NCBI RefSeq assembly: GCF_001644195.2
Contig: NZ_LWBL02000039.1
Coordinates: 38,309 to 70,308 of the forward strand
Origin: Bacillus marinisedimentorum
GTDB taxonomy: Bacteria; Bacillota; Bacilli; Bacillales; Bacillaceae_O
Direction of reading: 5' to 3'
Length of the DNA stretch: 32,000 nt
Numbering within the stretch: the stretch's first letter is position 1; the number at the start of each line of letters is the position of its first letter. The translations under genes and the position numbers were made by a program. Shown in pieces: positions 6,256 through 30,258 of this stretch. Under the pieces are notes generated by a model, which was not told where the DNA came from, ran no database searches, and was given only the letters and a program-made list of their open reading frames with translations.

Positions 6256-6283
6256 ATGAACTGTTCACCTCAGAGAATAATAA

Positions 6284-6290: not shown

Positions 6291-6295
6291 AATCG

Positions 6296-10178: not shown

Positions 10179-10247
10179 CCTGTTATCCACCCTTTTATCC
10201 AAAATCTTCATTATTTCAGTGACTATAGCATAGCAAAGCAAGCCACT

Positions 10248-10254
10248 TTCGACA
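10248..10254 (-). promoter_or_regulatory. Candidate Spo0A box, proximal, upstream of maf
   Basis: The minus strand reads taTTTGTCGAAag, 70 nt upstream of the maf ATG. It overlaps the -35 position of a possible promoter (TTGTCG, 17 nt, TATGCT; TATAGT follows). Confidence 0.4.
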
Positions 10255-10288
10255 AATATTAATATGTAAAATGCACAGCTCTATACAT

Positions 10289-10295
10289 TTCGACA
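10289..10295 (-). promoter_or_regulatory. Candidate Spo0A box, distal, upstream of maf
   Basis: The minus strand reads tcTTTGTCGAAat. It lies 41 bp from the proximal box in the same orientation. Confidence 0.4.
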
Positions 10296-10370
10296 AAGAC
10301 AGTGATTTTCTGTCTGATGTCCCAGTCCCATTTTAAAAGATGTTTTTCCCTTTTCCCAGTCCCTTTCCCT

Positions 10371-10411: not shown

Positions 10412-11386
10412 TCATAAACGCTGTTCAGCTGTCCATCCCTTATATATTACGAGCCCGTCCAGCAATGCCTGCTGGGCATCCCAGAGGTTGCGATCCTTGC
10501 CGGCCGATGCCCATTTATTATATGAAGCATAAGCCGCATTCAGCTTCACGCCGAAAGCTTTTGCAGTTTTGTCAATTTGCTCAAGGTTTGCCCATTCTTC
10601 ATACGCTTTTTCAAGGCTGTCATTCCCCGCGCCTGGTTTTGTATTTCCGGCAAGTGCAGATCCGGTTAAGGACACCAGTTTTTCATGGACGGATAAACCT
10701 GTTTCGTAGTATTGTTTCAGTTTTTTTTCGGAAACGGGCTGCTCGTCCACCGAAAAAGCTTTCGTATACACATCCTGGCCAGTCTGTTTATACGTTTCAG
10801 CGATCTCCTGGATATCTTCTCCTTCCGCGATTCCGATAAAAAGGAATGCTTTGTCGCCGGCCGGCATCACAACCGCTGGATACCCTTTTTCATGTAGGTT
10901 TTTTTCGAATTCAGCTGCGGTATCCTCTGTCGAGAAAGCCCCTCCCTGGATGACCTGTGCGCTGTAGGCCGGAATCACATCGCCCCCGGCACCTGCATCC
11001 TGCACTTCTTCGCCGCCTTCCCCGGCCGCTTTCAGTTCAACGGGCAAATCATTGCGGACGAGCAATGAAAGAATCATTATTCCGAGAAGTGTTCCAATCA
11101 CGATGGCCCCAGCCAGCGGCAGAAGCCATCGATTCAATCCATTTCCTTTGGAGCGGCTGCTACCCGCTTTCCTGTGCGGAAGGTGAATGAGTTTAGCCGG
11201 CTTACGGCGTGGTATCGGTGATCTAGACGGGCGCCGGGCGGAAGTTTTTTTCGTTGCCCTCGGGATTCGCGGAGAACTGGAAGGCTCGCGGGATGCGGCC
11301 AATTCTTCCTGTTCATCGTCAAGCCTCATCTTATGGATTTTCCCATTGTAAATGATTGTGATTTCACGGCGGTCCTGCTTGTCCAT
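10412..11386 (-). CDS. spoIIB: SPOR-domain membrane protein at the SpoIIB position
   Basis: Basic N-terminal tail, one TM segment (WLLPLAGAIVIGTLLGIMILSLL) and a SPOR-like segment (YSAQVIQGGAFSTEDTAAEFEKNLHEKGYPAVVMPAGDKAFLFIGIA). It sits between the comC/pilD-side genes and maf, as spoIIB does in B. subtilis. I prefer the ATG at 11384-11386 (RBS GGAGTGAG) to the ORF-track start at 11437. Confidence 0.7.
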   Translation of the reverse strand: MDKQDRREITIIYNGKIHKMRLDDEQEELAASREPSSSPRIPRATKKTSARRPSRSPIPRRKPAKLIHLPHRKAGSSRSKGNGLNRWLLPLAGAIVIGTLLGIMILSLLVRNDLPVELKAAGEGGEEVQDAGAGGDVIPAYSAQVIQGGAFSTEDTAAEFEKNLHEKGYPAVVMPAGDKAFLFIGIAEGEDIQEIAETYKQTGQDVYTKAFSVDEQPVSEKKLKQYYETGLSVHEKLVSLTGSALAGNTKPGAGNDSLEKAYEEWANLEQIDKTAKAFGVKLNAAYASYNKWASAGKDRNLWDAQQALLDGLVIYKGWTAEQRL

Positions 11387-11434
11387 GCTGCTCACTCCAA
11401 TCCTATTACTGACCTTCACCGTAACAAATTCACA

Positions 11435-11467
11435 CAAAAAAAGAACAAGACATTTGTCGCCTTGTCC
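11435..11467 (-). terminator. Intrinsic terminator ending the pil operon
   Basis: On the minus strand, GGACAAG-gcgacaaatgt-CTTGTTC is followed by TTTTTTTG, about 35 nt after the pilO-LysM stop. Confidence 0.7.
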
Positions 11468-11502: not shown

Positions 11503-12444
11503 TCAGTAAACAGGAATTTTGAGTTTTTGCCCGGCATGCACGTTATCACCATTGAGGTTGTTATAATTGCGGATGACCGTTTCCCCGCTTCTGCTGTTAA
11601 AATACTTCATTGAGATGGAATATAGTGTTTCACCGCTTAAAACGGTGTGAGTCATGATCGTAGACCGGGCCGCCGTATCGTCCCCGGATGATTCGGATTG
11701 TACTGAATCTTCCACGGAAGCTGTGTCCCGATCCCCTTCCTCTGAACCGGATGTTTCATTGAAAAACGCCCCTGAAACGAGGGGGTTTTCTTTATAAGCC
11801 GGCTGCGGTGCATGAAATGCCGGGCCGAATTCAAACTTTCCGGCTAAAGAAGGATAGTAATAGTTCCGCAGTTTCACTGAAAAAGCGAGTGGATTCTGTC
11901 TTTCACTTAAAGCTGTTCTCTCCGGGTTGCCGGTAAACGAAAAGGAAACAATCTGATAATGCCGTTTTTGTTTTTCAAAAGTTTTCAAAAAATCTTCTAG
12001 AGCATAGTAATCTTCAGCCTCTACCTCAAGTACTGTATCCATAGGAATCAAGCCTTCCGGTTTCGGATGCTCTTCCGTGACCCCTGCCGCGGAAGCCTTT
12101 TTTTCGGCACCTTCTTCAGGACCGGCAAAATCAGCTTTTAACAGGAGGCTTCCCGAAACAGTTTCCGCACGTTCAATGTCGAGAATGACCTGCTCCTGAA
12201 AAAGCTTCACGGGTATTTTTTGCTGAAGATCCACCGCTGCGCTCTCACCGCCGCCGGTTTTCACTCTAGTTTCCTCGAGAGCTGCCAGCAGTTTCTGCTC
12301 CGTTTCAAGTTCGTTTTCAAGCCGGGTAAGTTCTCCCCCATGCGGACGGATATAAAAGAAATATAAGGCCATAAGGAGCATGAAGACCATGAATGCAGCT
12401 CCGCCGATGATCATCCATTCTTTTCTATCAAGCTTATTGATCAT
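11503..12444 (-). CDS. pilO: PilO-like T4P alignment protein fused to a C-terminal LysM domain
   Basis: N-terminal TM plus coiled coil (GELTRLENELETEQKLLAALE) in the PilO position, with a 4 nt overlap onto pilN. The C-terminal HTVLSGETLYSISMKYF...NYNNLNGDNVHAGQKLKIPVY is a canonical LysM motif. Confidence 0.75.
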   Translation of the reverse strand: MINKLDRKEWMIIGGAAFMVFMLLMALYFFYIRPHGGELTRLENELETEQKLLAALEETRVKTGGGESAAVDLQQKIPVKLFQEQVILDIERAETVSGSLLLKADFAGPEEGAEKKASAAGVTEEHPKPEGLIPMDTVLEVEAEDYYALEDFLKTFEKQKRHYQIVSFSFTGNPERTALSERQNPLAFSVKLRNYYYPSLAGKFEFGPAFHAPQPAYKENPLVSGAFFNETSGSEEGDRDTASVEDSVQSESSGDDTAARSTIMTHTVLSGETLYSISMKYFNSRSGETVIRNYNNLNGDNVHAGQKLKIPVY

Positions 12445-13031
12445 GGCTGTTCCCCCTCCAGTGCCGCCTGCTGAATCTCAAGTGTATTCAGAAGAAGTTT
12501 ATATTCGCCGAGGTAACGCGGCAGTCCGGAATCAGGTTCTTCTTCCAGTTTGAGTGATGCAAGCGTCAGCAATTCAGCGCTCATCACATAGCTGGATCCC
12601 TTTAATCGATTAAGGAAATAAGCCGATTCCCTGTTCGTATCAAACTGGGCAATCAATGTTACCGAATGGGTTTCTTCCTTATAATCGAATTTCATCAGAT
12701 AACCCCGCTCTGGAAGGAGGCTGGTAATATGCTCAAGAAAGAAAACGGTTGGCAGGCGGCTTGATTCAGCCCAGCCGACGGCTTCCTGGAGCATTGCCGC
12801 CGAACTTGCCGATCCGCCGCTGGCGGCATGTTTCTCAGCTTCCAGCCTCAGGTTCCTTACATCTTCGACACGCTCTCTGACCGCCTCTTTTTCCGCTTTT
12901 ACCGACTGAATTTGCCAGAGCATTATGGAAAGCACTCCTGTAAAAACAAGGGCAACAACGGCTGATGCCGCCAAAAAAGCATATGATTTCCTCTCTTTTT
13001 TTGGAAGCAGATTAATGTCGGCAAGCATCAC
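12441..13031 (-). CDS. pilN: PilN-like T4P assembly protein
   Basis: N-terminal INLLPKKER motif followed by a single TM segment, typical of PilN. Overlaps both pilM and pilO by 4 nt. Confidence 0.8.
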   Translation of the reverse strand: MMLADINLLPKKERKSYAFLAASAVVALVFTGVLSIMLWQIQSVKAEKEAVRERVEDVRNLRLEAEKHAASGGSASSAAMLQEAVGWAESSRLPTVFFLEHITSLLPERGYLMKFDYKEETHSVTLIAQFDTNRESAYFLNRLKGSSYVMSAELLTLASLKLEEEPDSGLPRYLGEYKLLLNTLEIQQAALEGEQP

Positions 13032-14026
13032 AGCACCTCTTTCAGCGCAAGGCCTGCAGCTGTGTAGAACGATGAGGGAAGGATGTCATCAGCACCTTCG
13101 GCTTGAACATTGTGCTGATTGATACGGAATACCGGCAATTCAAACCGTTCAGCAAGCCTCATTTCGATAAAAGACAGTTCCGGGTGATCACCATTCAGCA
13201 AAATAGCGGTAACCCCTTCCCTGCCCTGGTTAAGACTGTACCTGTAAAAGTTGATGATCCGTTCAACTTCAGTTGCCGCATCCTCCAGCTGGCCGAACAA
13301 TTCCTCAGGTGCTCCGCCCCACTTGATTTCCTGCAAGCCCTGGCGATTATTGGTGAACTCCCATTCCGTCCCGTCCATATCCATTTTCAGATGCCTCATA
13401 AAAACCGGCCTGTCCTTATGGAATACACTCACATTCATCATATCCAAGTCAGCCTGTACAAGCAGCAGATGGTCGTCCGGTTTTGTCTGTCCGGCTGCAT
13501 GGAAAAGCCGGTAGATCGATAACGGTGAAATATCAGCAGCAACAGGACGAAGCCTGGCTTCTTCCAGTAATTCGGCATACTGCCTTACGACCGGTTCCGG
13601 TGCAGCAAACAATAGAATGATTTTCTCATCCCCCTCTTTACCGGTCAGGATGAAATCAAAGACTGGATCTTCAAATGGCAGGTGAATGCTGGCACCGAGT
13701 TCCATGAAAAGGTGGCCTTTAATTTCATCATCGGCAAGCGAACCCGGTATTTTAATTTGCCGGATGACAATATAAGGATCAGGCACAAGAAATCGGACAG
13801 GCCTTCCTTTTATTCCCCAGTCAGCCGCACACTCATCCAAAATAAGGCCAAGAGTTTCAGCATCCTGAATCACGCCGTTAAGAATGACGCCGTGAGGAAG
13901 CGTCCTTTCCTTGTGCGACTTGATGGTCAGCGGATCTTTTTGTTTGAGCTCAAGCAGCCGGATTGTATAGTCCTTGATGATCAGGTTGACCGGCTTGTTT
14001 TTCGCAAGTAATCCAGAAAAAAGCAT
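13028..14026 (-). CDS. pilM: PilM, actin-like T4P assembly ATPase
   Basis: 332 aa cytoplasmic protein with an FtsA/actin-like two-lobe pattern, immediately upstream of pilN. GGGGGGA RBS. Confidence 0.8.
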   Translation of the reverse strand: MLFSGLLAKNKPVNLIIKDYTIRLLELKQKDPLTIKSHKERTLPHGVILNGVIQDAETLGLILDECAADWGIKGRPVRFLVPDPYIVIRQIKIPGSLADDEIKGHLFMELGASIHLPFEDPVFDFILTGKEGDEKIILLFAAPEPVVRQYAELLEEARLRPVAADISPLSIYRLFHAAGQTKPDDHLLLVQADLDMMNVSVFHKDRPVFMRHLKMDMDGTEWEFTNNRQGLQEIKWGGAPEELFGQLEDAATEVERIINFYRYSLNQGREGVTAILLNGDHPELSFIEMRLAERFELPVFRINQHNVQAEGADDILPSSFYTAAGLALKEVL

Positions 14027-14047
14027 GGAGATCCCCCCGATTAATCG

Positions 14048-14800
14048 TCAATAAAAGTTAAAGTACCAGGTTAACAGCCTTTCGCCGAAAAAATAGGCGG
14101 TCAACGTTCCCAATCCAATAAATGGGCCAAACGGAATCGGCTTTTTCCGTTCAAGCTTGCCCGCCAGCAGGCCGAGGATGCCAAACAGCGCGCCATAAAA
14201 AGTAGAGAAAAAGAATGCGAGCATAACTCCCTTCACACCCAGCACAAGGCCGAGCACCCCGAAAAGCTTTACATCACCGCCGCCCATGCCCCCTTTTGAA
14301 AGGACGGCAACCGCATATAAAAGTGCGAATCCGGCTGCCCCGCCTGTAAAGGGGGCATACCAGGGCTCAAGCGGAAAGAACATCCGCAAAAGAATGAACA
14401 GGCCTCCAAAAAACAGCAAAACCTTATTAGGAATAATCATATATGTGAAATCCGAAACAAATACGATGATAACCAGTGAAATAAGCGGCAGTGCAACAAA
14501 CAGTTCACCTGTCCAGCCGACAAAAAGCGGTGCAGCGGCAAACAGTGCCGCGGTAAGCAGCTCCGTTGCCGGATACAGCGGTGAAACCCGGGTGCCGCAG
14601 TGCCGGCATTTCCCATGCTGGCGAAGATAAGACACCACCGGGATGAGGTCTGCCGCTGTCAGGGTTGTGCCGCATTCACCGCATGCCGACCTCGGCTTGA
14701 TGATGGAACGGCCTGCCGGGATGCGGAGGCCGACAACGTTGTAGAAGGAGCCGAGGATGAGGCCAATCAAAAAAATGTAGGTGTAAAATAGTAAATTCAT
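14048..14800 (-). CDS. pilD: Prepilin peptidase / N-methyltransferase (A24 family; positional equivalent of B. subtilis comC)
   Basis: N-terminal CGECG...CRHCG zinc-binding pairs and a polytopic membrane body. GGGDVKL and an earlier VSDFTYMIIPN supply the two catalytic Asp motifs. Confidence 0.93.
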   Translation of the reverse strand: MNLLFYTYIFLIGLILGSFYNVVGLRIPAGRSIIKPRSACGECGTTLTAADLIPVVSYLRQHGKCRHCGTRVSPLYPATELLTAALFAAAPLFVGWTGELFVALPLISLVIIVFVSDFTYMIIPNKVLLFFGGLFILLRMFFPLEPWYAPFTGGAAGFALLYAVAVLSKGGMGGGDVKLFGVLGLVLGVKGVMLAFFFSTFYGALFGILGLLAGKLERKKPIPFGPFIGLGTLTAYFFGERLLTWYFNFY

Positions 14801-14814
14801 TATTTTAAGCTATT

Positions 14815-15201
14815 TTACTTTACAGGCTCAGCTTCAATTAACTCAGTTTCAGTAGCGTCAGAATTTGATTGTGTTTTTATTAAAGAAACAGCTTCATGAT
14901 CAGAAATTGAAAATACTCCACCAGAGTATTTTACTGTGAAAGTGTCATCTTTCGCTTTATCTAAGTAATCTTCTAATTTATTAAAGTCCCATTCGTTTAC
15001 AGTTGGATCTGAGGCGTGTGCCAACTTAGCTGCATTTATAATTTGAATTGCGTCTGCTACTGTTGCATCATTCTCCGTCTTATCAATGATCTTCCCGACA
15101 CTAGGAACCGCAATCGCCGAAATAATCCCCAAAATCACAATGACAGCCAGCAGTTCAACGAGTGTAAAACCTTTCTCATTCTTCCTCAATTTTTTCAACA
15201 T
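14815..15201 (-). CDS. pilA: Major type IV pilin
   Basis: MLKKLRKNEKG|FTLVELLAVIVILGIISAIAVP shows a class III signal peptide, a G|F cleavage site, Glu at +5 and a hydrophobic alpha1 helix. The C-terminal domain is very AT-rich. Confidence 0.9.
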   Translation of the reverse strand: MLKKLRKNEKGFTLVELLAVIVILGIISAIAVPSVGKIIDKTENDATVADAIQIINAAKLAHASDPTVNEWDFNKLEDYLDKAKDDTFTVKYSGGVFSISDHEAVSLIKTQSNSDATETELIEAEPVK

Positions 15202-15249
15202 CTCGCAACACTCCCTCTTCGTTTTGTAGTAATTTATATAAAAGCGCCA

Positions 15250-16458
15250 CTACCCAATCTGATTGAAAATATCGAACATCGGCACGATGATGGCAAGCAC
15301 GATGATACCAACCAGGGCAGCGAGGATGACAATCATCAACGGTTCTATAACAGCTTTAAGCCGGTCGGTTGCCGTTTCGACTTCCGCTTCATAAAAGTCA
15401 GCCACTTTGGCGAGCATTGCATCCAGTGATCCGGTTTCTTCACCGATTGCGATCATTTGCGTGACAAGCGGCGGGAATACCCAGTGCTCTTTCATCGGAG
15501 CAGCAAGCGATTGGCCGGATTCCAGTGATTCACGTCCGCGATTGAGAACGCGGGCGATCACTTCATTCCCGACTACGCGTTCCACAATCGACAGCGCCTG
15601 CAGGATCGGCACCGAGCTGGCAAAGAGCGAGCTGAGTGTCCTTGCCATACGGGCCAGGGCTGCCTTTTGCAGCATCTTGCCGAAAATCGGCATCTTAAGG
15701 ACGGCATAATCAAGGTAATACTTCATTTCTTTATCACGCCTGATGAAATGGATTGCCGCATATGCGAGCACAAATAACAGAACGAAAAGCCACCAGAATC
15801 GCTGCATGAACATACTGGCATTCAGAACCACCTGTGTAATCGCCGGCAGCTCGGCGCCAAATCCAGCAAACATATCCACAAAAACGGGGACGATTGCAAT
15901 GAGCAGGAAAACGACCACGGCAACGGCCAGAGTTCCGACGACAGCCGGATAGGTAAGCGCTGAAATGACTTTCTGACGGATACGGTGCATTTTTTCAAAG
16001 TGATCAGCCAGCTGTTCCAGCGTTTCATCCATGTTGCCGCCTGCTTCTCCAGCCCGCATCATGTTAAAGAACAGGGGCGGAAAGACTTTAGGGTGCTTGC
16101 TGCAGGCTGCAGAAAGCGGATTGCCTTCCCGAAGCTCATCCTCTATATGTATGAGCGCTTTTTTAAGCGTCTTGCTCTCTGTCTGCTCGGAAAGGATCCT
16201 GGTCGCATTCACCACCGTAACTCCAGCTTTCAGAAGTGTTGAAAACTGGCGCAGGAAGATGACAAAGTCGCGGAGTTTCACCTGCCTCCCGACCGTTATT
16301 TCCTTATTCCAGATCGTTTCCGGCACCTGGCTGATTTCAAGGACGGCGATATTTTTTTCCCGGAGTTTCAAAACAGCTTCACGCCGGGTATCTGCCTCGA
16401 TTTTGCCTTTTCTTTTTTTTCCTGATTTCTCGCGCCCCTCGAACCGGAAATAGCCCAT
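15250..16458 (-). CDS. pilC: T4P platform protein PilC (GspF family)
   Basis: 402 aa with a duplicated GspF-type domain, three TM segments and GEE/AGE motifs (MMRAGEAGGNMD, MIAIGEETGSLD). Confidence 0.93.
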   Translation of the reverse strand: MGYFRFEGREKSGKKRKGKIEADTRREAVLKLREKNIAVLEISQVPETIWNKEITVGRQVKLRDFVIFLRQFSTLLKAGVTVVNATRILSEQTESKTLKKALIHIEDELREGNPLSAACSKHPKVFPPLFFNMMRAGEAGGNMDETLEQLADHFEKMHRIRQKVISALTYPAVVGTLAVAVVVFLLIAIVPVFVDMFAGFGAELPAITQVVLNASMFMQRFWWLFVLLFVLAYAAIHFIRRDKEMKYYLDYAVLKMPIFGKMLQKAALARMARTLSSLFASSVPILQALSIVERVVGNEVIARVLNRGRESLESGQSLAAPMKEHWVFPPLVTQMIAIGEETGSLDAMLAKVADFYEAEVETATDRLKAVIEPLMIVILAALVGIIVLAIIVPMFDIFNQIG

Positions 16459-16459
16459 G

Positions 16460-17497
16460 TCAATCCAGCTCCTCTACGAAAGGCAAAGCTGCTTCCCTGG
16501 TGATCATGCCGCTGTCCATCAGTTCTTTGACTGATGAGCCGAATGTATGCATCCCCGCAGTTCTGCTCGTCTGCATGACATTTTGGATTTGATGGATTTT
16601 TTCGTTGCGGATCAAGTTCGCTACAGCTGGTGTATTCGTCAAAATTTCAGTCGCTGCCCGCCTCCCTGAACCGTCACTTATCGCGAACAGGCGCTGGCTG
16701 ATGATGCCGACAAGCACGGAAGCAAGCTGAACCCTTATTTGCGCCTGCTGATTCGGCGGGAATACATCGATGATCCTGTCAATCGTTGCCGGTGCTCCTG
16801 ATGTATGTAATGTGCCAAGGACAAGATGACCTGTTTCCGCCGCCGTAATGGCAGTTGAAATCGTCTCCAGGTCCCTCATTTCACCGACGAGAATGACGTC
16901 AGGATCCTGTCTCAGGGCAGCACGAAGCCCGTTTGCAAACTTGTTTGTGTCAAAGCCTATTTCCCGCTGGTCGATAATGCAGCTCCCATGGCGGTGCAAA
17001 TATTCGATCGGGTCTTCAAGCGTGATGATGTGCTTGTTCGCTGTCTGGTTCAAATGATCGATCATCGCCGCCAGTGTCGTCGATTTGCCGCTTCCTGTCG
17101 GCCCTGTTACCAGAAGAAGCCCCTGCGGCTTTGACACCATCTCTTTCAGGACCGGCGGCATGTGGAGTTCCTCAATCGCCGGAATGGCTGTCGGCACAAT
17201 TCTTACCGCCATGCTGATGCAGGACCGCTGATAATACGCATTTATCCGAAACCGGGAAACGCCCGCAATACTGTAGGAAAAGTCAAATTCCCGCGCCTGT
17301 TGGAAATCGTCCCACTGGTGTTCCGGAATGGCAGCCCGCGCCATCGCTTCAGTATCTTCAGGCTGCAGCGATTCCTTGCCGTATTTTTTCAGCACGCCGT
17401 TTATCCGCATGATCGGCGGTACACCTATCGTCAGGTGCAAGTCGGATGCTTGCAATTCGTATGCTGCCCGAAGCAAATTGTTCAAACGCTGTTTCAT
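16460..17497 (-). CDS. pilT: Twitching-motility retraction ATPase PilT
   Basis: Walker A GPTGSGKSTT, Asp and His boxes, and a PilT-type AVANLIRNEKIHQI motif. About 345 aa with no N-terminal GspE_N domain. I prefer the ATG at 17495-17497 (RBS TAGGTGA) to the GTG at 17506. Confidence 0.92.
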   Translation of the reverse strand: MKQRLNNLLRAAYELQASDLHLTIGVPPIMRINGVLKKYGKESLQPEDTEAMARAAIPEHQWDDFQQAREFDFSYSIAGVSRFRINAYYQRSCISMAVRIVPTAIPAIEELHMPPVLKEMVSKPQGLLLVTGPTGSGKSTTLAAMIDHLNQTANKHIITLEDPIEYLHRHGSCIIDQREIGFDTNKFANGLRAALRQDPDVILVGEMRDLETISTAITAAETGHLVLGTLHTSGAPATIDRIIDVFPPNQQAQIRVQLASVLVGIISQRLFAISDGSGRRAATEILTNTPAVANLIRNEKIHQIQNVMQTSRTAGMHTFGSSVKELMDSGMITREAALPFVEELD

Positions 17498-17506
17498 TCT
17501 CTTCAC

Positions 17507-19168
17507 CTACTCGCTGTTTGTGACGCGCAGCACTTCTTCGGTCGTCGTCACGCCTTCTTTCACTTTGAGGAGCCCGTCATCAATCAAATAAATCATTTTC
17601 TGGTTTGTGGCATAGTCACGGATGTTCCCCATTGATTCCCCATCCATGATCATCCGCCTCATCTCATCATCGACTGTCATGAGCTCATGTATGGCGACCC
17701 TGCCTTTATAGCCGGTCATATTGCACGTTCCGCAGCCTCTTCCCCGCATGATCCTTTCGATTGTAATTCCGCGTTTCGAGAAAATTTCAAGCTCCCTTTT
17801 CGTCGGTTCCTGCACTTCGCCGCAGTCGCGGCATACCTTCCTGACAAGGCGCTGGGCGACTACGCCTGAAAGTGAAGCTGCAACAAGAAAGGGTTCCACC
17901 CCCATGTCGGTAAGGCGGGTGATTGATGTCACTGCATCATTTGTGTGCAATGTACTTAAAACAAGATGCCCGGTAAGGGAGGCCCGCACCGCAATTTCAG
18001 CCGTCTCTTTATCCCGGATCTCACCGACCATGATAATATTCGGATCCTGCCGCAAAATCGAGCGCAAGCCCCGAGCAAACGTCATCCCGATTCCTGCATT
18101 GACCTGGATCTGGTTAATTCCTTCAATCTGGTATTCTACCGGGTCTTCGATGGTGATGATGTTGACTTCCTCACGATTCAAATGATTGAGGGCCCCATAA
18201 AGCGTAGAAGACTTTCCGGATCCTGTCGGGCCGGTAATCAGCACAATGCCTGTCGGCTGTTCGATCAGCTTGTAGAACCGTTTTAAATTGACCTTATTGA
18301 AGCCAATCTTGTTCAAGTCATTCAGCGCGCTGCTCAAATCGAGGATGCGCATGACGACTTTTTCACCGTAGATGGTCGGAAGCGTCGCGATCCTTATGTC
18401 AACCGGATGAAAATCAAGGTTTGTCTTAAGGCGGCCGTCCTGCGGCAAACGGCTTTCTGTAATATCGAGATCCGCCATGATTTTGATGCGGGCCGTCATG
18501 ACGTTTTGCATATGTTTTGGAAGCGATCTCTCTACCCTTAACACGCCGTCCACGCGGAATCGGACATCGAGCTTCGATTCGTGCGGATCAAAGTGGATGT
18601 CGCTCGCTCGCTGCTGGACCGCACTTTTAAGAATCTGGTTGACAAGCCTCACAACCGGCGAATCTTCATCGGTGATCCGCTCATCTTCTCCAAGCCCGCC
18701 GGCCGGCATTTCTTTCATCAGCTCTTCCATCGACTCATCGATTCCATAATATTTGTTGATGGCCTTCAAAATATCATCTTTGGTGGCTATCGCCGTCTCA
18801 ATCTGGAAGCCGGTGGACAGGCGCAAATCATCAATTGCATAAAAGTCCATCGGATCGGCCATGGCGACAAACACCCTGTCGCCTTCCTTCTTTAAGGGAA
18901 TGACAAGATTGCGGCTGGCGAAGTCTTTCGGAATCAAGCTGATCAGCTGAGTGTCGAAAGGATAGCGGTACAGGCTGACATGCGGGATTCCAAGCTGGAA
19001 TTCGAGTACTTCGATCAATTGCTGTTCCGTTATGTATCCGAGCTGCAGAAGCGCATCTCCCAGTTTCTGGCCTTTGCTTTTTTCAGCCAGAGCATTGGAC
19101 AGCTGTCCGTCTGTTATCAAGCCTGCTTCCACGAGCAGGTCCCCGAGGCGTTTCCTTGTTGTGCTCAT
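17507..19168 (-). CDS. pilB: T4P extension ATPase PilB (GspE family) with an MshEN-type N-terminal domain
   Basis: Walker A GPTGSGKSST, a tetracysteine zinc motif (CRDCGE...CGTCNMTGYKGR), and an N-terminal RLGDLLVEAGLITDGQLSNALAEK / KLGDALLQLGYITEQQLIEVLEFQ tandem motif. I prefer the ATG at 19166-19168 (RBS GGGAGGG) to the start at 19186. Confidence 0.93.
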   Translation of the reverse strand: MSTTRKRLGDLLVEAGLITDGQLSNALAEKSKGQKLGDALLQLGYITEQQLIEVLEFQLGIPHVSLYRYPFDTQLISLIPKDFASRNLVIPLKKEGDRVFVAMADPMDFYAIDDLRLSTGFQIETAIATKDDILKAINKYYGIDESMEELMKEMPAGGLGEDERITDEDSPVVRLVNQILKSAVQQRASDIHFDPHESKLDVRFRVDGVLRVERSLPKHMQNVMTARIKIMADLDITESRLPQDGRLKTNLDFHPVDIRIATLPTIYGEKVVMRILDLSSALNDLNKIGFNKVNLKRFYKLIEQPTGIVLITGPTGSGKSSTLYGALNHLNREEVNIITIEDPVEYQIEGINQIQVNAGIGMTFARGLRSILRQDPNIIMVGEIRDKETAEIAVRASLTGHLVLSTLHTNDAVTSITRLTDMGVEPFLVAASLSGVVAQRLVRKVCRDCGEVQEPTKRELEIFSKRGITIERIMRGRGCGTCNMTGYKGRVAIHELMTVDDEMRRMIMDGESMGNIRDYATNQKMIYLIDDGLLKVKEGVTTTEEVLRVTNSE

Positions 19169-19182
19169 ACTGACCCTCCCGT

Positions 19183-20529
19183 TCAATTCCCTTTGATCAC
19201 TTCTCCAGGCTGGTCCCAGATCGAACCGCCGTTTCTGTCTGGCCAGTCAGCCGGACCGGTCTGGCCGTTTTCGGCTTCTGTTTCATTCCCCGGCTCTGGA
19301 TCATCGCTGATGCCTCCTGGTTCCAAATCTGAAGCTGTTTCTTCCGTTTCTGGAGGTGCGCTGCCACTTCTGGCAGCACTGCCTTCCCTGAGCGGCCGGA
19401 CTTCAATCCGGTGAACAGGCGAATAATAATCTTCAGCAAGCACCATTTCAGACAGTAGTTCGCCTGCAGGTGTTTTTTCAATCCGGAACAATTGAACGGA
19501 ATATCCCGGAGATCCTTCTTCAGTCACTTTCTTTTCTCCTGGCGCAAGCAAAGAAGAATACTGCACGACCGTTTTCGGATTATAGGATGCCTTTTCCCCC
19601 AGGACGGCCTCATATTGAAGGAAAAAAGGAATTCCGCTGATTTCGACGGTCAGAATGTCTTCTGTCAAATCGAACGTTATCGTATATGGTGTTGGATTGG
19701 GGTTATAGAAAACAAAATCCAAATTTCCGGCCAATACCTTTGCTTCATAGCCAGGAGGAATATCTTCTGGCACCGCATTGCCGATATGGCGCTCGACGAT
19801 CGAGAAGTTTGTTTCAGCTGCAGCCCTATACAGAGCGGACGAAATTATTGAAAGATACAAGCCCTGTTCACCTGGAACCCCTTTTTTTCCGAACGTATTC
19901 AATACCGAAAATGAACTTTCCGGCAAAATCGTATACGTTTCACCCGGCTTTACATAGTCATGGAGAATAGGCATTTTGTCTGCCAATCCGGTAATGGACA
20001 CACGGGCCACAACTTGTTTTTCCGCTCCATCAACGTCCCTGAACGCAAGAAGGGAATACGTATGGACTCCTGTCTTCATCTTTTCGGCATCTTGGAGCAT
20101 GTTTTGCTTCAGCCGATCAATGTCCAGGACAGAAAGAATCGTTTCGCCTGCCAGCAGCCGGGCCGACCGATATACCTCTTCATCGTTGACAGTAATAACA
20201 GGCTTATTGTTTTGACCGTCTTGGACAGCTGCAATGGAAGTCTCCACATCAATCATAACGCCATTAATCGGATACGTTTTATCCTGCATCTTGAGCTGAA
20301 ACGCAGCTCCCTGCTGCCATTCAGCTGCGATATCTGCCAACTCCGAAGTTGCTTCTTCCTCAGTTAATCCGCTTATATCAGCATCAGCGATTTTCGTTCC
20401 TGAAGAATATGTCCCGTTTGCAGAAACCGTTTTTTCATAGACGAATGTACCACCATGTGTAAACGCGATGATAAAAAGGCTTCCTAAAAAAAGCAGTAAG
20501 AAAAGTTTCAGTTGTTGTATGTTCTTCAT
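19183..20529 (-). CDS. Secreted or membrane-anchored VanW-like protein with a G5-like domain and an acidic tail; the active-site motif is degenerate
   Basis: Signal/TM segment (LKLFLLLFLGSLFIIAF). VanW-domain pattern P.ssFS....G...G...(x)ALYRAAAETNFSIVERH...P.GYEAKV..NLDFVFYNP. A G5-like stretch follows (VVQYSSLLAPGEKKVTEEGSPGYSVQLFRIE). I prefer the ATG at 20527-20529 (RBS AAAGGAGGA) to the start at 20553. Confidence 0.65.
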   Translation of the reverse strand: MKNIQQLKLFLLLFLGSLFIIAFTHGGTFVYEKTVSANGTYSSGTKIADADISGLTEEEATSELADIAAEWQQGAAFQLKMQDKTYPINGVMIDVETSIAAVQDGQNNKPVITVNDEEVYRSARLLAGETILSVLDIDRLKQNMLQDAEKMKTGVHTYSLLAFRDVDGAEKQVVARVSITGLADKMPILHDYVKPGETYTILPESSFSVLNTFGKKGVPGEQGLYLSIISSALYRAAAETNFSIVERHIGNAVPEDIPPGYEAKVLAGNLDFVFYNPNPTPYTITFDLTEDILTVEISGIPFFLQYEAVLGEKASYNPKTVVQYSSLLAPGEKKVTEEGSPGYSVQLFRIEKTPAGELLSEMVLAEDYYSPVHRIEVRPLREGSAARSGSAPPETEETASDLEPGGISDDPEPGNETEAENGQTGPADWPDRNGGSIWDQPGEVIKGN

Positions 20530-20641
20530 GTTGTTCCTCCTTTCACCGCTCATGGTTCAAAAGACTTATATTTTGCTTTATTCGTGTTTCTTTGACAATC
20601 TCCTGCCACATGAATAAAAATCTTATAAAGGCCGGCAAATA

Positions 20642-21370
20642 CTAGCTCGTTTCCATTTCATTAAGGATTGACTCAAGCCGCCCCGATTTCGCACTGTTGT
20701 TATTTACCGGTTCTGAATCTGTATCTTGAAAATGCGGACGGCGGCGATCCTTACCAGCTGCATCCATCAAGGACGGCAAGTTTGCTCCCTTTCCTACTTT
20801 ACCGGCTTGCTCCTCTGTTTCATTCAGCTCAGCTATTTCCTCGAGTACAGCTTCAAGCGGACGTTGACGTTCTGCTGGTTCCTCATTGCCGTGCAATACC
20901 GCCCTGTCATCCGCTCCATCCAAATCGTCGAGCCCTTCAAGCAGATTTTCCAGCTGATATTCCCTTCCGTACTTATCATCATTACTTACAGCTTTTGTTT
21001 CCATCTCCTCAGAAGCGGGGAGACTGTCCCCTGATGCTCCATTACCCTCAGCAGCGAGATTCAGAGTCTGGCATTCAGAGGCATCATCCCCCATACTGTT
21101 TCCCTTTTCTTCAAATTCATCAAGGCTCGCTGCCGTTTGTATAAAAGCAATGCGATCTTTTAAAAGGAAATAAGCTGTAACCGATAATACCCCTGCCGCC
21201 GCCAGCCCTGCTGCACCATAAATATATTCCGCTAACAGGGAAAGTGAAGCGATGATACTGGATCCTGCAGTTATGGTAAGTTTGCTTTTAACATTCATCT
21301 GTAGCGGAGCAAAATAAAAAATGATTCCGAGTATAACAGCTGCTGCCGCAGCAATAAGCACTGATTCCAC
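20642..21370 (-). CDS. Hypothetical membrane protein with a long acidic, probably disordered C-terminal half
   Basis: About three N-terminal TM segments, then a D/E-rich region (LLEGLDDLDGADD, EEIAELNETEEQ). I recognise no family. A GTG at 21368-21370 has an AGGGAG RBS; the ORF-track start is the GTG at 21388. Confidence 0.5.
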   Translation of the reverse strand: MESVLIAAAAAVILGIIFYFAPLQMNVKSKLTITAGSSIIASLSLLAEYIYGAAGLAAAGVLSVTAYFLLKDRIAFIQTAASLDEFEEKGNSMGDDASECQTLNLAAEGNGASGDSLPASEEMETKAVSNDDKYGREYQLENLLEGLDDLDGADDRAVLHGNEEPAERQRPLEAVLEEIAELNETEEQAGKVGKGANLPSLMDAAGKDRRRPHFQDTDSEPVNNNSAKSGRLESILNEMETS

Positions 21371-21400
21371 AGTTTCACTCCCTCTCACTCTGTTAGATTT

Positions 21401-21407
21401 TGTCGAA
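21401..21407 (+). promoter_or_regulatory. Candidate Spo0A box in the divergent T4P promoter region
   Basis: The plus strand reads atTTTGTCGAAtc. It ends about 28 nt upstream of an extended -10 (TGTATAAT, 21434-21441) facing the minor-pilin operon. It also lies in the leader or promoter of the minus-strand operon. Confidence 0.4.
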
Positions 21408-21433
21408 TCAATCTACTATTCTTCTAATTTATT

Positions 21434-21441
21434 GTATAATA
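21434..21441 (+). promoter_or_regulatory. Extended -10 element (TGTATAAT) for the minor-pilin operon
   Basis: A perfect TATAAT preceded by TGn. The -35 region is poor (CTACTA), as is typical of activator-dependent promoters. An alternative promoter is TTGAAA, 17 nt, TTCAAT further downstream. Confidence 0.35.
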
Positions 21442-21516
21442 AATGTAACAAAGTTGAAAGATTTGTCATATTTTAATTCAATGTAATTAGTTCAAGGGGC
21501 AAGGGAGGCATGGGTA

Positions 21517-22002
21517 TTGAGGACTAAAGTCTCAGGTGAAGAAGGGTTTACGTTAATGGAAGTTATGCTGGCATTTACAATACTTGCCATTGCCGCTGTC
21601 CCCTTTTTCATGTTTTTCACCCAATCGATGATGTTTTCAGCCGAAAATGGAAAGAAACTGGCCGGAATTCAAACGGCCCGGGAAGTTATGGCGTACATAC
21701 ATGAAAAAAATGTCACAGCAGAAGACTTCACCGTTACGATTGATGGCAATCGGCAAGCGCTTGATTGGTCCCCTCTCATTTCAGATGACAGCGAGGCTTT
21801 TAAAAAAACGGCAGTACCGCACACAGTTATCCTTGAACAAAATCAAACGGATTACTTTGTCCGGGTCGTCTCCGCATCCTTTAACGGGCCTGCACCTGCC
21901 GGCGGTGCCCCGCTCCAGCCCGTAGCAGTTGAGGTTTACTCAGATGCGGATGCCGGCTCTTTTGTAACTGAGACATTCGGTTATGTCGGGGAGGGTTCAT
22001 AA
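21517..22002 (+). CDS. Minor pilin (prepilin-type N-terminal cleavage/methylation domain)
   Basis: TTG start 8 nt after a GGGAGG RBS. ...SGEEG|FTLMEVMLAFTILAIAAVPFF has the G|FTLxE prepilin signature with Glu at +5. Confidence 0.8.
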   Translation: MRTKVSGEEGFTLMEVMLAFTILAIAAVPFFMFFTQSMMFSAENGKKLAGIQTAREVMAYIHEKNVTAEDFTVTIDGNRQALDWSPLISDDSEAFKKTAVPHTVILEQNQTDYFVRVVSASFNGPAPAGGAPLQPVAVEVYSDADAGSFVTETFGYVGEGS

Positions 22003-22458
22003 GTGAAATTGAAGGCCCCCTTCATGGACAGCAGCGGTGTAACATTGATCGAATTACTGACAGCATTGACACTCACCATAATGGTGCTTGGCGTTTTTTT
22101 CAATGCCCTGCAAAACAGCATGAATGCGTATGACAAAACGGCAATACATAACCGTTTGAGGCAAGAAGCAAACATCGTCCTCACCAGTCTTGCTGAAACC
22201 CACCGCAAATGGGACCTTCCTTACAAATTGGCGTCAGCAGATAGTGAAATTACCTTGAATGGGGATTCAGGTGAGCGTACGATTTCAAGTGGAGAATTCA
22301 AATATTTGGTTACGATAAACGAAGTCAGCAATTTGAATGACGGCCCTGTGGTGATCAATGCTTCCAGCTATCATATTTCATTGACAGTCCGATCAAAACG
22401 AAAAGCAGCAGAATCATATACACTGTCAACTTCCATCGACAGAATCAAGGAGGATTGA
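22003..22458 (+). CDS. Minor pilin (prepilin-type N-terminal domain)
   Basis: GTG start abutting the previous stop codon. ...DSSG|VTLIELLTALTLTIMVLGVFF has the prepilin signature with Glu at +5. Confidence 0.8.
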   Translation: MKLKAPFMDSSGVTLIELLTALTLTIMVLGVFFNALQNSMNAYDKTAIHNRLRQEANIVLTSLAETHRKWDLPYKLASADSEITLNGDSGERTISSGEFKYLVTINEVSNLNDGPVVINASSYHISLTVRSKRKAAESYTLSTSIDRIKED

Positions 22459-22463
22459 TGCCT

Positions 22464-23474
22464 ATGTTTCATACGGATGAAAAAGGATCAGCGCTTCTTA
22501 CCGTCCTGCTTATGATTTCCATCATTTTTATATTCGGAGCCGTTCTAGCCAGCTCAGCCATCAGCGGAATGAAGCAGACAAAAATGTCTGAAAGGGACAT
22601 CCAGGCAATACACCTTGCTGAAATGGGAATCGCACAATTCAGGAAAAATCCTTCTCAGTCGCTAAACAGCACCGGTCCTTTTTACATAAACGGAAAAGAC
22701 CCGGCAAGTGCTACAGCACTGAAATACTCATATCAATTTGAAAATGTAAGCAGGGACACCCGTACAGGTTTTTTCTCCTTGACCTCGGCGGGTACTTCTC
22801 ATGGAATAACAAGAAGGATTGATGTAAGCGGTACATTGTACGACGGGAATACACCGCCATGTGACGGCCCGTTTGCACCTGATTGCTATGTGGAAGAGGA
22901 TGCAGAGGTCAGCCAAAGTGTGATTACAGGAGGTGATATGACCGTTTGTAATAAAGCGAACCTCGAAATTAAAAACGGCAGCCTGTTCGTCGGGGAGATG
23001 CTTTACTTGTCCCATAACGCCGGCGGAGCGAACAGTTCATCAATCATTGTCGAAGAGAATGCTTATTTTAGATCTGGAATTACCATGCTGCAGCAAAACA
23101 GTCTGATTGTGAAGGGCGATGCTTACTTTTACAATCCCTACATTGACCTGAAAGGCAGCAAACTGCAGCCGTGTCCCCCTGAGAAGCAGGCGGACAGTAA
23201 CGGACAGGGCAGCCCTAATGTAAACAAGTCCGGTAATGGTAATGAAAACGGAAATAAAGGCCTGGTTTGTGTGGAAGGAACCCTGTTTTATCCAGAAGGT
23301 GAAGAATTGCTGGAAAGGAAGACACTGGCGGAAAACACAACTTGCGGTTCGCTTGGCCCAGGCATAGAAAGAGGTATTTTCGCCCGAAGCTTCGAAGCCA
23401 TTCCGCCAGACAGATTTCCTGACTTCTTCAAAGAGTTCCCGCTGGTTATCATTGAAGAAATTACCTATCAGTAA
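22464..23474 (+). CDS. PilX/GspK-like large minor pilin lacking Glu+5 (possible tip or priming subunit)
   Basis: DEKG|SALLTVLLMISIIFIFGAVLA is a PilX_N-type hydrophobic N-terminus without Glu5. The C-terminal region has repetitive beta-strand-like segments and a GNGNENGNK low-complexity patch. The ATG at 22464 is best spaced from the AAGGAGGA RBS; the ORF-track start is the TTG at 22455. Confidence 0.7.
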   Translation: MFHTDEKGSALLTVLLMISIIFIFGAVLASSAISGMKQTKMSERDIQAIHLAEMGIAQFRKNPSQSLNSTGPFYINGKDPASATALKYSYQFENVSRDTRTGFFSLTSAGTSHGITRRIDVSGTLYDGNTPPCDGPFAPDCYVEEDAEVSQSVITGGDMTVCNKANLEIKNGSLFVGEMLYLSHNAGGANSSSIIVEENAYFRSGITMLQQNSLIVKGDAYFYNPYIDLKGSKLQPCPPEKQADSNGQGSPNVNKSGNGNENGNKGLVCVEGTLFYPEGEELLERKTLAENTTCGSLGPGIERGIFARSFEAIPPDRFPDFFKEFPLVIIEEITYQ

Positions 23475-23977: not shown

Positions 23978-25741
23978 TCATGAACTGTAAACCGCAACTT
24001 TGTTTCGCCCTTTCTGTTTAGCTCCGGTATACATGGCACGGTCGGCATGGCGGATGAGTGCCATCGGTTCATCTGCATCTACAGGGGCCGTGGCTATGCC
24101 AAAAGATGCTGTGATTCGTATCATCTCTTTTGATTTATTTTCTCGTTGAATATGCTCTCTTAGCACAAAAGGTTTGCCGGCGATCGTCTGGCGGGCCATT
24201 TCTGCAAAAGCGAAGCAGCGATGCCTGTCCATATCGGGAAGAATAACAACAAACTCTTCTCCACCGTAGCGGATGACAGTTCCCCTGTCACCGGTTATTT
24301 TTTTCAGCCTGTCTGCCACTTCAATCAAAATCTCATTCCCGCTCTGATGACCGTATGTATCATTAATCGCTTTAAAGTGATCGAGATCAAGCATGATCAG
24401 CGACAGGGCCCTTAAGTTCCCGCCTTCAAGCTCAACAAAATTGGAGGCCAGGTACGTTTCCATGTATCGATAATTATATACATTCGTAAGCGAGCACTTT
24501 TCACTTTCTTCCTTCGTCTGTTCATAACTCCGGGCATTTTCAAGTGACACACCCAGATAGCTTCCAAGAATGTCGACAATCGTCAGCTGGAATTTTTCGA
24601 AGGCGCGCTTTTGCTTCGATGCCAGCAAAATAATACCGACAATTTCACGGTTCCGCTGGATCGGCACAGCCAAAATGCTTTCGACATCACCCGGCAACAC
24701 GCCTTTGGACAGAAACCGCCATTCATGCCGGCTATGATAAAGCAGGTTCCTTTCCGTCCGCATCAAACGGTTCGTTATTCCATCGGACCGCCAGAATGGG
24801 TTTTTTCCCTTTCTTGAGTCTGCTGGCTGTCCCGCTTCAAAGTACCGGAGGAGTTTCGTTTTCCTGCCCCTGTCAACGTCGATGATGTAGGCGAAATCAA
24901 CAGGCAGCATTCCCGCGATCTTTTCAATGAACAGATCGAGAATATCATCGGAATTCATGCGCCCCGTCAGTTGATGGCCGATATCGCTCGCTTTTTGCAG
25001 GTACACATTCATCTTCTGGCTTGTGTAATACAGCTTCACAAAAAGGGAGATTGTCATGAATGGGATGCCGACAAACAAGATTGCAACGGTACCCATTTCG
25101 ATATACAGCATATAAAGGACGAGGCCAACAGGGAATACGAGCAGGCTTGTGAGCGCCTCCCAGGCTGCATCCTTGCCGAATACAGGCCTTTTTTCTCCAG
25201 TCATATACAGCTGAACGACCATTAAAAAAATCTGGTTGGCAGCAAAAATGGCTGCGGCATATAGCATCACCTGAAGTAGCCTGTCCATATCGGACAGCAT
25301 GATAGCGCCATGCTGGCCTCCCGCAAGGTTGTAGATGGTTCCACCGGAAAGCGATACGAACAGGAACATCAAAAGATTGGCTGGTATGCGGTACGACTGC
25401 TGTGAAGGGATTTTCAGCTTGATCAGCAATACGGCTACCGCGGCCTGTGTCAGGACCATTTCAATAAAGAGGCCGAAATATAAAAAAACAGAGAGTGATA
25501 TCCCCTGGATAAAGAAAACAGGGGTTTCGTTTACAATAATCGGGAAAAAGGCGACAAGGCACATCAGCAATAAAAAGGCGATTATATCTTGTCCGGCACC
25601 CTGAATCACCGGGTCAGACGTCTGATACACACCGAGTAAAATAAGCGGCCATAATATTGCTGCCGCACCCCAGAGTCCAGCCGCTTTGGCTTTACTCACC
25701 CTCATAAGGCCCTCCACCCTTCTTTGTTCATCTATTTTCAT
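23978..25741 (-). CDS. Membrane-bound GAF-GGDEF diguanylate cyclase
   Basis: A polytopic N-terminal half, a central GAF-like region (ESILAVPIQRNREIVGIILLAS) and a C-terminal GGDEF domain with an intact RYGGEEF active-site motif plus DLDHFKAINDTYGH. The true start may be the ATG at 25703-25705 (RBS GGTGGAGGG), because the first ATG at 25741 has no RBS. Confidence 0.88.
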   Translation of the reverse strand: MKIDEQRRVEGLMRVSKAKAAGLWGAAAILWPLILLGVYQTSDPVIQGAGQDIIAFLLLMCLVAFFPIIVNETPVFFIQGISLSVFLYFGLFIEMVLTQAAVAVLLIKLKIPSQQSYRIPANLLMFLFVSLSGGTIYNLAGGQHGAIMLSDMDRLLQVMLYAAAIFAANQIFLMVVQLYMTGEKRPVFGKDAAWEALTSLLVFPVGLVLYMLYIEMGTVAILFVGIPFMTISLFVKLYYTSQKMNVYLQKASDIGHQLTGRMNSDDILDLFIEKIAGMLPVDFAYIIDVDRGRKTKLLRYFEAGQPADSRKGKNPFWRSDGITNRLMRTERNLLYHSRHEWRFLSKGVLPGDVESILAVPIQRNREIVGIILLASKQKRAFEKFQLTIVDILGSYLGVSLENARSYEQTKEESEKCSLTNVYNYRYMETYLASNFVELEGGNLRALSLIMLDLDHFKAINDTYGHQSGNEILIEVADRLKKITGDRGTVIRYGGEEFVVILPDMDRHRCFAFAEMARQTIAGKPFVLREHIQRENKSKEMIRITASFGIATAPVDADEPMALIRHADRAMYTGAKQKGRNKVAVYSS

Positions 25742-29959: not shown

Positions 29960-30258
29960 CCAATAAAAAAAGCCTTTTTCACCAAAAGGGCGAAAAAAGC
30001 TGTATCCGCGGTACCACCTTTATTTGCCTGAACAGGAATGCTGAAAAATCCTGCCCGGCACACTTCATCGGATAACGGCTTATGCCGGCTTCTTCTACTG
30101 ATGCCATAAGGCCCTTGTTCAAAGAAGCTGCTTGAGGGCGACCTTCCGAATACATGGATCCTGGAAATTCTCTCAGCAAACTGAATTTCCTCTCTTTAGG
30201 CCTTGCATCCATACTCTTCCCTGTCCCAGCATTTCATTCATGGACTTTTTCAAATACT
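29960..30258 (-). promoter_or_regulatory. T-box leader (valine specifier) controlling valS
   Basis: The minus strand shows stem I elements (AGAGA, GCTGAGAG), a candidate specifier GTC in GGAAGGTCGCC (30140-30142), and the T-box sequence AAAGGTGGTACCGCGG (about 30006-30023). The terminator GCCCTTTTGGTGAAAAAGGC (29972-29991) plus TTTTTTT competes with the antiterminator. Confidence 0.85.

Follow-up and report, generated by a model that had tools for sequence, protein, structure and literature searches.

The window, by which we mean the whole 32,000-nt stretch of Bacillus marinisedimentorum DNA that was analyzed, shows the classic Bacillaceae arrangement valS-folC ... maf-radC-mreBCD-minCD, into which a type IV pilus cluster is inserted (Table 1). 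The M23 and M50 genes after minD resemble spoIVFA/FB and a ysxE-like gene is also present; judged from this sporulation synteny, the host is likely a spore-former. The spo0A gene is not among the genes of the 32,000-nt window. A GGDEF/GAF gene adjoins the minor-pilin operon.

An earlier note, written from the letters of this DNA, had described an AT-rich spacer between a pilB-side operon and a minor-pilin operon. The spacer is indeed divergent and AT-rich, with a GC content of 32%, and the plus-strand operon opens with three prepilin-like genes. These genes match the N_methyl motif and, weakly, ComGE/ComGF, and the G|FTLME prepilin signal is seen in their translations; the first of them begins with a TTG codon behind the SD sequence GGGAGG (21503-21508). 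On the minus strand, the likely start of the first gene is GTG 21370, 7 nt beyond the SD sequence GAGGGAG (21378-21384); the upstream GTG 21388 is without SD. With the start at 21370, the spacer comprises 146 nt (21371-21516) and not the 128 nt given before. The leftward operon does contain pilB, but it opens with an unannotated membrane protein gene and a VanW/G5 gene, and pilB follows only in third place. Searches of Pfam and NCBIfam with the membrane protein yielded no family match, and tblastn against the related loci found no match either.

Table 1. Genes, promoter elements and 0A boxes of the pilus locus (positions are those of the window; "." marks elements without a single assigned strand).
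Feature	Position	Strand	Basis or remark
valS (T-box leader), folC, GAF-GGDEF protein gene	upstream side of window	-	
Leftward operon except gene 1: VanW/G5, pilB, pilT, pilC, pilin, prepilin peptidase, pilM, pilN-like, LysM protein	11503..20553	-	Pfam and NCBIfam matches
VanW-like protein gene	19183-20553	-	
Leftward operon, gene 1: membrane protein, 242-248 aa, acidic tail	20642..21384 including SD (gene 20642-21370/21388)	-	
Imperfect tandem box TGTTAGA	21391..21397	+	4/7 match, 3 bp upstream of perfect core
Perfect extended 0A box TTTGTCGAA	21399..21407	+	core TGTCGAA at 21401-21407
Poor minor-pilin -35, TCTACT	21412..21417	+	3/6 match, 17-nt spacing to TATAAT
Shared promoter core, 12-mer TATTGTATAATA	21430..21441	.	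invariant in 13 loci; anchored comparison, MAFFT alignment A1
-10 hexamer TACAAT, leftward (assembly-operon) promoter	21431..21436	-	predicted start ~21424
-10 hexamer TATAAT, minor-pilin promoter	21435..21440	+	predicted start ~21447 (about 7 nt past -10)
Alternative leftward promoter ATGACA-16-TACATT with TGn	21442..21469	-	window-specific; absent in relatives
Conserved block TTGAAAGA	21454..21461	.	near-invariant columns, fixed spacing from 12-mer
TTTCAA, complement within TTGAAAGA block	21459..21454	-	candidate leftward -35, 17-nt spacing
Rightward operon: three prepilin-like minor pilin genes (21517-22002, 22003-22458, 22455-23474)	21503..23474	+	
maf, radC, mreBCD, minCD, M23/M50 pair in spoIVFA/FB position	beyond pilus cluster	-	

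Related loci were collected by a PilB genome scan, which yielded about 20 loci from Bacillaceae whose PilB identity was 64-75%, and the divergent arrangement is kept in many of them. Thirteen loci, namely the window and loci from Anoxybacillus, Cytobacillus, Rossellomorea, Neobacillus, Lederbergia, Metabacillus, B. testis and others, were anchored on TTGTATAAT and compared. In the MAFFT alignment A1 of these loci, TATTGTATAATA occupies 12 consecutive invariant columns, and in all 13 the element lies upstream of the first minor-pilin gene and faces the minor pilins. The TATAAT hexamer that the earlier note had picked as part of a divergent type IV pilus promoter region falls inside this 12-mer, which bears out that assignment, although the sequence TGTATAAT is found at 21433-21440 and not at 21434-21441. 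The promoter had furthermore been described as an extended -10. Since the TG dinucleotide (21433-21434) directly abuts TATAAT and does not form TGnTATAAT, it stands at -14/-13 instead of the canonical -15/-14, and the TG flag of the promoter scan was not raised. The poor -35 region reported for the same promoter was confirmed (TCTACT); a sigma-A PWM scan detected no decent -35 for the rightward TATAAT in most loci. In the loci L001, L003 and L008, SD and ATG follow at most about 35 nt past TATAAT.

On the opposite strand, the leftward hexamer TACAAT overlaps TATAAT by 2 bp, the TA dinucleotide, within the invariant 12-mer, and from the geometry of the hexamers the predicted rightward and leftward start sites are 23 bp apart. 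The 13-locus comparison further revealed the motif TT(G/A)AAAGA at a fixed distance after the 12-mer. In the PWM scan, TT(T/C)(C/A)AA-16/17-TACAAT came out first or close to first among the leftward promoters of 12 of the 13 loci. A natural control is available in locus L037, where the pilin genes all point the same way and no divergent operon exists: TGTATAAT is kept, the other strand reads TACAAA, so that the leftward hexamer is lost, and the TTGAAAGA block is missing. The two pilus operons are thus predicted to share one compact bidirectional sigma-A promoter, the core of which is ancient and conserved across Bacillaceae. In some relatives the TTGAAAGA block and the SD in front of the first pilin gene overlap. 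The complement of the -35 of the alternative leftward promoter, TGTCAT(A) at 21464-21470, is at the same time a degenerate 0A-like box.

Beside this promoter lies the 0A box that the earlier note had pointed out. Its core matches the 7-mer exactly, with G2, C4 and G5 intact, and the A/T flanks are present as well (TT-TGTCGAA-T); the definition of the core, the contacts made by G2, C4 and G5 and the flanking A/T residues have been described for Spo0A (PMC3485338). In 20,000 dinucleotide shuffles of the spacer, the exact 7-mer appeared in 0.45% (P=0.0045) and the 9-mer in 0.07% (P=0.0007), so the match is statistically unusual as well as exact. Over the whole window, TGTCGAA is found in 11 copies compared to 4.9 expected, and TTTGTCGAA in 4 copies compared to 0.51 expected, a number that was reached in none of 100 shuffles. 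All four copies of the 9-mer are non-coding (P ~3e-4) and oriented toward the downstream gene, and since they have no extended flanks in common, they do not constitute a repeat element.

The 9-mer is no exclusive signal of Spo0A, because the copy upstream of minC is better read as the -10 of a sigma-H promoter, for which AAAGGAGTT-11 nt-GTCGAATTA is a near-perfect fit (consensus used: RNAGGAWWW-11/12-RNNGAATWW). For the pilus copy, GTCGAATCA could pass as a sigma-H -10, but positions 21381-21390 read cctctcactc, without AGGA, and this reading was rejected. The two copies at maf have GAAA instead of GAAT. Given the lack of an AGGA-type -35 at the pilus copy and the GAAA of the maf copies, these three are no sigma-H -10 elements.

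Relative to the rightward promoter, the core of the box occupies -46 to -40 when counted from the predicted start at ~21447. The earlier placement of the box upstream of this promoter therefore stands, at about -43, with TCTACT 4 nt and TATAAT 27 nt downstream of the box. Counted from the predicted leftward start at ~21424, the core covers +18 to +24, which agrees with the earlier assignment of the box to the leader or core promoter of the opposite operon, as far as this leader can be predicted from the conserved elements. The distance to the minus-strand start codon had been given as 13-31 nt; with the likely start at GTG 21370, it is 31-37 nt. The tandem box TGTTAGA extends from +28 to +34 of the same predicted leader. 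Spo0A footprints in phi29 and Nf cover a consensus box and a box with three mismatches that are 3 bp apart (PMC2731898), and TGTTAGA might possibly form the second half of a site for a Spo0A~P dimer, although a 4/7 match in AT-rich DNA is weak by itself. Binding to the perfect core would be in line with experiments on C. difficile, where EMSA with promoter fragments of spo0A, sigH, lplA and ssuA, all containing a perfect core, showed binding of the Spo0A-DBD in four of four cases, whereas a core-less control fragment was not bound, and where a single change at G2, C4 or G5 lowered the affinity about 10-fold (PMC3485338).

When the orthologous pil loci were checked for conservation of the box, as the earlier note had suggested, 9 of the 13 promoters had no 0A-like box (one mismatch allowed, with G2, C4 and G5 kept) and none had a box at the position and in the orientation found in the window; this comparison extends over distant relatives only. 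The PilB genome scan reached 75% identity at best, and the closest match in two metagenome scans had 72%. The VanW-like protein is 100% identical to the NCBI protein of B. marinisedimentorum, and a search with it gave, beyond this species, one match with 29% identity, and exact-protein look-ups for closer relatives found none. The nearest sequenced genome has 54.5% AAI (PMC8289215). Across the 13 loci compared, the box is lineage-specific and not positionally conserved. The Lederbergia locus (L013) has the 12-mer ATCAATCTACTA in common with the window, but TTTCGTA in place of TGTCGAA, and the window contains about 10 extra bases before the -10.

The relatives that do carry boxes have them at other places. 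Two exact boxes were found in the minor-pilin leader of L029, one at +23 and the other, which overlaps the SD-ATG spacer, at +64, so that L029 is approximately a mirror image of the window. L014 and L003 have AGTCGAA in reverse orientation. In L011 and L015, the stretch that separates the -35 region of the pilA promoter from its -10 contains a box in reverse orientation. The boxes of L029, L011 and L015 consequently occupy repressing positions, be it past the start site (L029) or inside the promoter between its two elements (L011, L015). Exact cores are enriched both in the 13 minor-pilin promoter regions (3 compared to 0.22 expected, P=0.002) and in 21 pilC-pilA spacers (2 compared to 0.13 expected, P=0.0085), an enrichment made up of only five boxes in four species. 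In the pooled pilus promoters, TGTCGAA ranked fourth of 630 7-mers of the same composition, and among the 180 with a CG it took first place; all three higher-ranking 7-mers come from one block common to closely related Neobacillus leaders. An apparently conserved 0A box upstream of pilA, TTCGACA near 9890 in L006, L009, L012 and L013, was rejected as a coding artefact, because it lies within the 3' coding sequence of pilC, where it encodes PMFDI. Only the pilC-pilA boxes of L011 and L015 are truly intergenic. The greedy ORF map over-calls coding sequence in AT-rich loci, and its coding/intergenic labels were therefore not used for the relatives.

The reading that we favor, tentatively and with rather less than even confidence, is that the box is a lineage-specific Spo0A~P operator blocking the leftward assembly operon. 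The lineage would have acquired a perfect Spo0A operator, consisting of TTTGTCGAA and the weak tandem box (21391-21407), beside an ancient promoter. With rising Spo0A~P, a dimer would occupy +18 to +34 of the leftward transcript, immediately ahead of its ribosome-binding site, and could act as a roadblock as at abrB, thereby switching the assembly operon off. The genes shut down in this way would be those for the membrane protein and the VanW/G5 protein as well as pilB, pilT, pilC, pilA, pilD, pilM and pilN, and sporulation signaling may thus shut off pilus assembly. The same dimer would cover -56 to -40 of the -35-less minor-pilin promoter, where it might cause modest stimulation or provide relief from the competing leftward polymerase, but this is the least supported arm of the proposal. 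We infer repression as the sign of regulation from the boxes of the other species: since these are at repressing positions, and since what they have in common would be that Spo0A~P represses one or another essential pilus operon, an operator on the leftward operon is preferred over a switch acting in opposite directions.

The strongest competitor is a chance or neutral match without regulatory role, next to a pilus promoter that is governed by different inputs, for instance c-di-GMP or a regulator of its own. We consider this somewhat unlikely, but it has to be taken seriously, because the nine orthologous promoters without the motif have the same -35-less promoter and because the entire 32-kb window was scanned for many types of motif, so that some matches are expected. 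The GGDEF/GAF gene beside the minor-pilin operon would be compatible with other control, and the use of c-di-GMP-II riboswitches at pilA by relatives indicates that other routes exist in the family. Against chance stand the rarity of the 9-mer in shuffled spacers, the excess of its copies in the window and their exclusively non-coding location, and the top rank of TGTCGAA among the CG-containing 7-mers of its composition in the pooled pilus promoters.

The earlier note had gone further and proposed that one site could control the two operons in opposite directions, activating the minor-pilin promoter and repressing the pilB-side operon; the activation would be class II-like, in the style of spoIIG or spoIIE. 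Dual action of a single site has an experimental precedent at the phi29 A2b/A3 promoters (PMC2731898), and the geometry is suggestive: the box is centered at about -43, only 4 nt from a poor -35, and lies inside the predicted leftward leader. Upstream 0A boxes stimulate spoIIG at a step after closed-complex formation (PMC12090719), and when one direction of a bidirectional promoter is activated, polymerase competition can block the opposite one (PMC12825309). The activation arm is nevertheless weakly supported. Relatives without the box keep the same -35-less promoter core, so that there is no obvious need of Spo0A for its activity, a canonical extended -10 is missing, and the boxes of L029, L011 and L015 occupy repressing positions only, L029 showing the mirror layout with its boxes in the minor-pilin leader. 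Moreover, inducing minor pilins without the assembly machinery would follow no obvious logic. We therefore regard the full opposite-direction model as improbable and retain a repressing operator on the assembly operon as the preferred reading.

A role independent of Spo0A, be it as operator of a dimeric regulator (TAGATT-N10-AATCTA, an inverted repeat at 21394-21399/21410-21415 that flanks the box), as 5' arm of a leader hairpin masking the leftward start codon (a 10-nt pair, 21362-21371/21401-21410, is 90% complementary, and GAUUGAUUCGACA pairs with the start-codon region in the leftward leader fold) or as a weak secondary rightward -35 (TTGTCG-17-TCTAAT, listed by the PWM scan), is very improbable, since none of the three is conserved in the 13-locus alignment, six-nt inverted repeats are frequent (6 pairs in 171 nt) and the leftward fold lacks significance (z=-1.24, matched by 22 of 200 shuffles). 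The palindromic operator was rejected on the grounds that short inverted repeats are common in this AT-rich spacer and that this one is unconserved. Structure in the rightward leader was not significant either (z=+0.69), and no Rfam family was detected in the spacer at gathering score, the relaxed-threshold matches being far below the threshold.

To our knowledge, hardly any studies exist on type IV pili in aerobic spore-formers. No paper on direct Spo0A control of pil genes was found in literature searches; the altered surface growth of C. difficile spo0A mutants is only an indirect hint (PMC3827441). This makes the pilus site, beside its conserved bidirectional promoter, a candidate addition to the Spo0A regulon, but it would not be a new kind of system. 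More speculatively, and in our estimate rather unlikely, Spo0A boxes may have been recruited repeatedly and independently to the type IV pilus promoters of spore-forming Bacillaceae, the positions differing between B. marinisedimentorum, Bacillus sp. OV322 and the Neobacillus spp. D3-1R and PS3-12. Pili would then be wired directly into the Spo0A~P-dependent choice of either sporulation or a life on surfaces or in biofilms, and in B. marinisedimentorum one operator beside the shared bidirectional -10 would determine in which ratio the two divergent pil operons are expressed. Should the site be functional, pili would join the Spo0A regulon, and the locus would offer a simple system, open to testing, in which a single response-regulator site acts on a bidirectional promoter. 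Whatever the role of Spo0A, TATTGTATAATA together with the TTGAAAGA block provides a ready-made marker for Bacillaceae pilus promoters, and the locus represents a predicted natural example of the 23-bp bidirectional class, driving two functionally linked operons.

The known mode of pilus control in Firmicutes is by c-di-GMP-II riboswitches, and the type found at C. difficile pilA1 likewise regulates type IV pilus genes of this phylum. Such riboswitches are located upstream of pilA in the related halophilic Bacillaceae L016, L019, L022 and L025; an Rfam scan detected none anywhere in the window, where the pilC-pilA gap comprises only about 48 nt. Among the Spo0A-controlled promoters, spoIIG has several boxes and an over-long spacer of 22 bp, and neither is seen at the pilus promoter. 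The likeness to spoIIG and spoIIE consists in a poor -35 and a 0A box immediately preceding it, at about -43, whereas the pilus promoter differs by a perfect TATAAT -10 that is conserved in box-less relatives and by having one strong box only.

Closer in layout is 0A box 3 of phi29 and Nf, where a consensus box and an imperfect box 3 bp away also lie between divergent promoters, one of which is without -35 (PMC2731898). In phi29, the single consensus box between A2b and A3 affects both promoters, but both effects are negative, as A2b is repressed and the p4-dependent activation of A3 is blocked (PMC2731898). The distance from box to -10 is 40 bp at phi29 A3 compared to 27 nt at the pilus promoter, and the two pilus promoters, unlike those of phi29, share one -10 region. 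For the proposed repression, the nearest parallels are abrB and the spo0A Pv promoter, where 0A boxes located past the start site are regarded as roadblocks (PMC12090719). The pilus locus resembles them in having a perfect core with a candidate tandem partner at about +18 to +34 past the predicted sigma-A start. Compared to abrB, the start site is a predicted one, the second box is weak (4/7) and the operator putative, and the target would be a type IV pilus assembly operon instead of a transition-state regulator.

The promoter itself corresponds to the bidirectional promoters with pseudo-symmetrical -10 described by Warman et al. (PMC12825309), with the same opposite-strand hexamers overlapping by TA. 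Start-site spacings of 10, 18 or 23 bp are common among bacterial bidirectional promoters (PMC12825309), and the predicted spacing of 23 bp at the pilus locus is one of these three, with both directions driving mRNAs. The pilus promoter is recognized from conservation alone and its start sites are predicted ones; its 12-mer, invariant in 13 genera or species, is more constrained than the generic symmetry of the -10 demands.

TGTATAAT or TGTATACT was also found at the major-pilin promoters of many relatives, in the pilC-pilA spacers of the related loci L003, L005, L007, L008, L010, L011, L012, L031, L037 and L069. In these promoters the G of the TG directly abuts the hexamer, as it does in the minor-pilin promoter, and the TG is non-canonical in both. 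Separately, an identical 13-mer, TTTGTCATATTTT, which contains the degenerate 0A-like TGTCATA, is common to the window (21462-21474) and to L008 from B. testis; in the window it lies on the downstream side of the promoter core, in B. testis on the upstream side, about 30 nt before TTGTATAAT of L008. On the other side of the promoter, the assembly operon opens with a gene whose product has no Pfam or NCBIfam match, and tblastn in relatives likewise gave no match; most related loci nevertheless have an ORF of 245-306 aa in this position.

Upstream of the major pilin gene, related halophilic Bacillaceae carry c-di-GMP-II riboswitches (57-81 bits; Table). Rfam detected no c-di-GMP-II riboswitch in the window, where a GAF-GGDEF gene (23978-25741) adjoins the minor-pilin operon. 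The RNA leaders of valS and of the ribosomal protein L21 gene are ordinary and expected. Among the related loci, L004 (JAGGQZ010000003.1) is titled Chryseobacterium sp. ISL-80, which appears at odds with its Bacillaceae-type content (72% PilB identity and a folC-GGDEF-pilin-VanW-pilB synteny typical of Bacillaceae) and suggests a mislabelled or contaminated assembly.

Table. Positions of boxes, genes and RNA leaders in the window and in related loci
Sequence	Positions	Strand	Feature	Remarks
Window	654-722	minus	Ribosomal protein L21 leader	59 bits
Window	6281-6312	minus	Third TTTGTCGAA copy, upstream of minC	Inside near-perfect sigma-H promoter match
Window	10248-10256, 10289-10297	minus	Two perfect TTTGTCGAAA boxes, upstream of maf	Direct repeats, 41 bp apart
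Window	10412-11437		Unannotated 341-aa ORF	spoIIB position
Window	20642-21370	minus	First gene of assembly operon	N-terminal hydrophobic segment; long acidic, low-complexity tail
Window	29983-30236	minus	T-box leader, upstream of valS	104 bits
L016	10025-10108		c-di-GMP-II riboswitch	Rfam RF01786
L019	9970-10051		c-di-GMP-II riboswitch	Rfam RF01786
L022	9956-10039		c-di-GMP-II riboswitch	Rfam RF01786
L025	9939-10022		c-di-GMP-II riboswitch	Rfam RF01786
L029 (Bacillus sp. OV322)	1741-1788		Two exact TGTCGAA boxes	Leader of first minor-pilin gene; 41 bp apart

Bacillus sp. OV322 has two exact 0A boxes (Spo0A binding motifs) at its pilus genes; the second falls between the SD of the first minor-pilin gene and its ATG. 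The recurrence of TTCGACA near position 9890 in L006, L009, L012 and L013 was rejected as a candidate because the conserved peptide PMFD(I/M) is encoded there, at the 3' end of pilC, which makes this sequence a trap when searching for 0A boxes. Motif-based calls can also be confused by the overlap of the 0A core with the sigma-H -10 consensus (GTCGAAT); the sigma-H promoter match at the minC-upstream copy reads AAAGGAGTT-11 nt-GTCGAATTA.

The pair upstream of maf, in the spacer that separates this gene from the unannotated ORF, is possibly a candidate Spo0A site stronger than the one at the pilus promoter, and it shares its box spacing with the minor-pilin leader of Bacillus sp. OV322. Its proximal box can be read as a -35-like hexamer, TTGTCG, 22 nt upstream of TGcTATAGT (10230..10222, minus strand), which is a spoIIG-like spacing.
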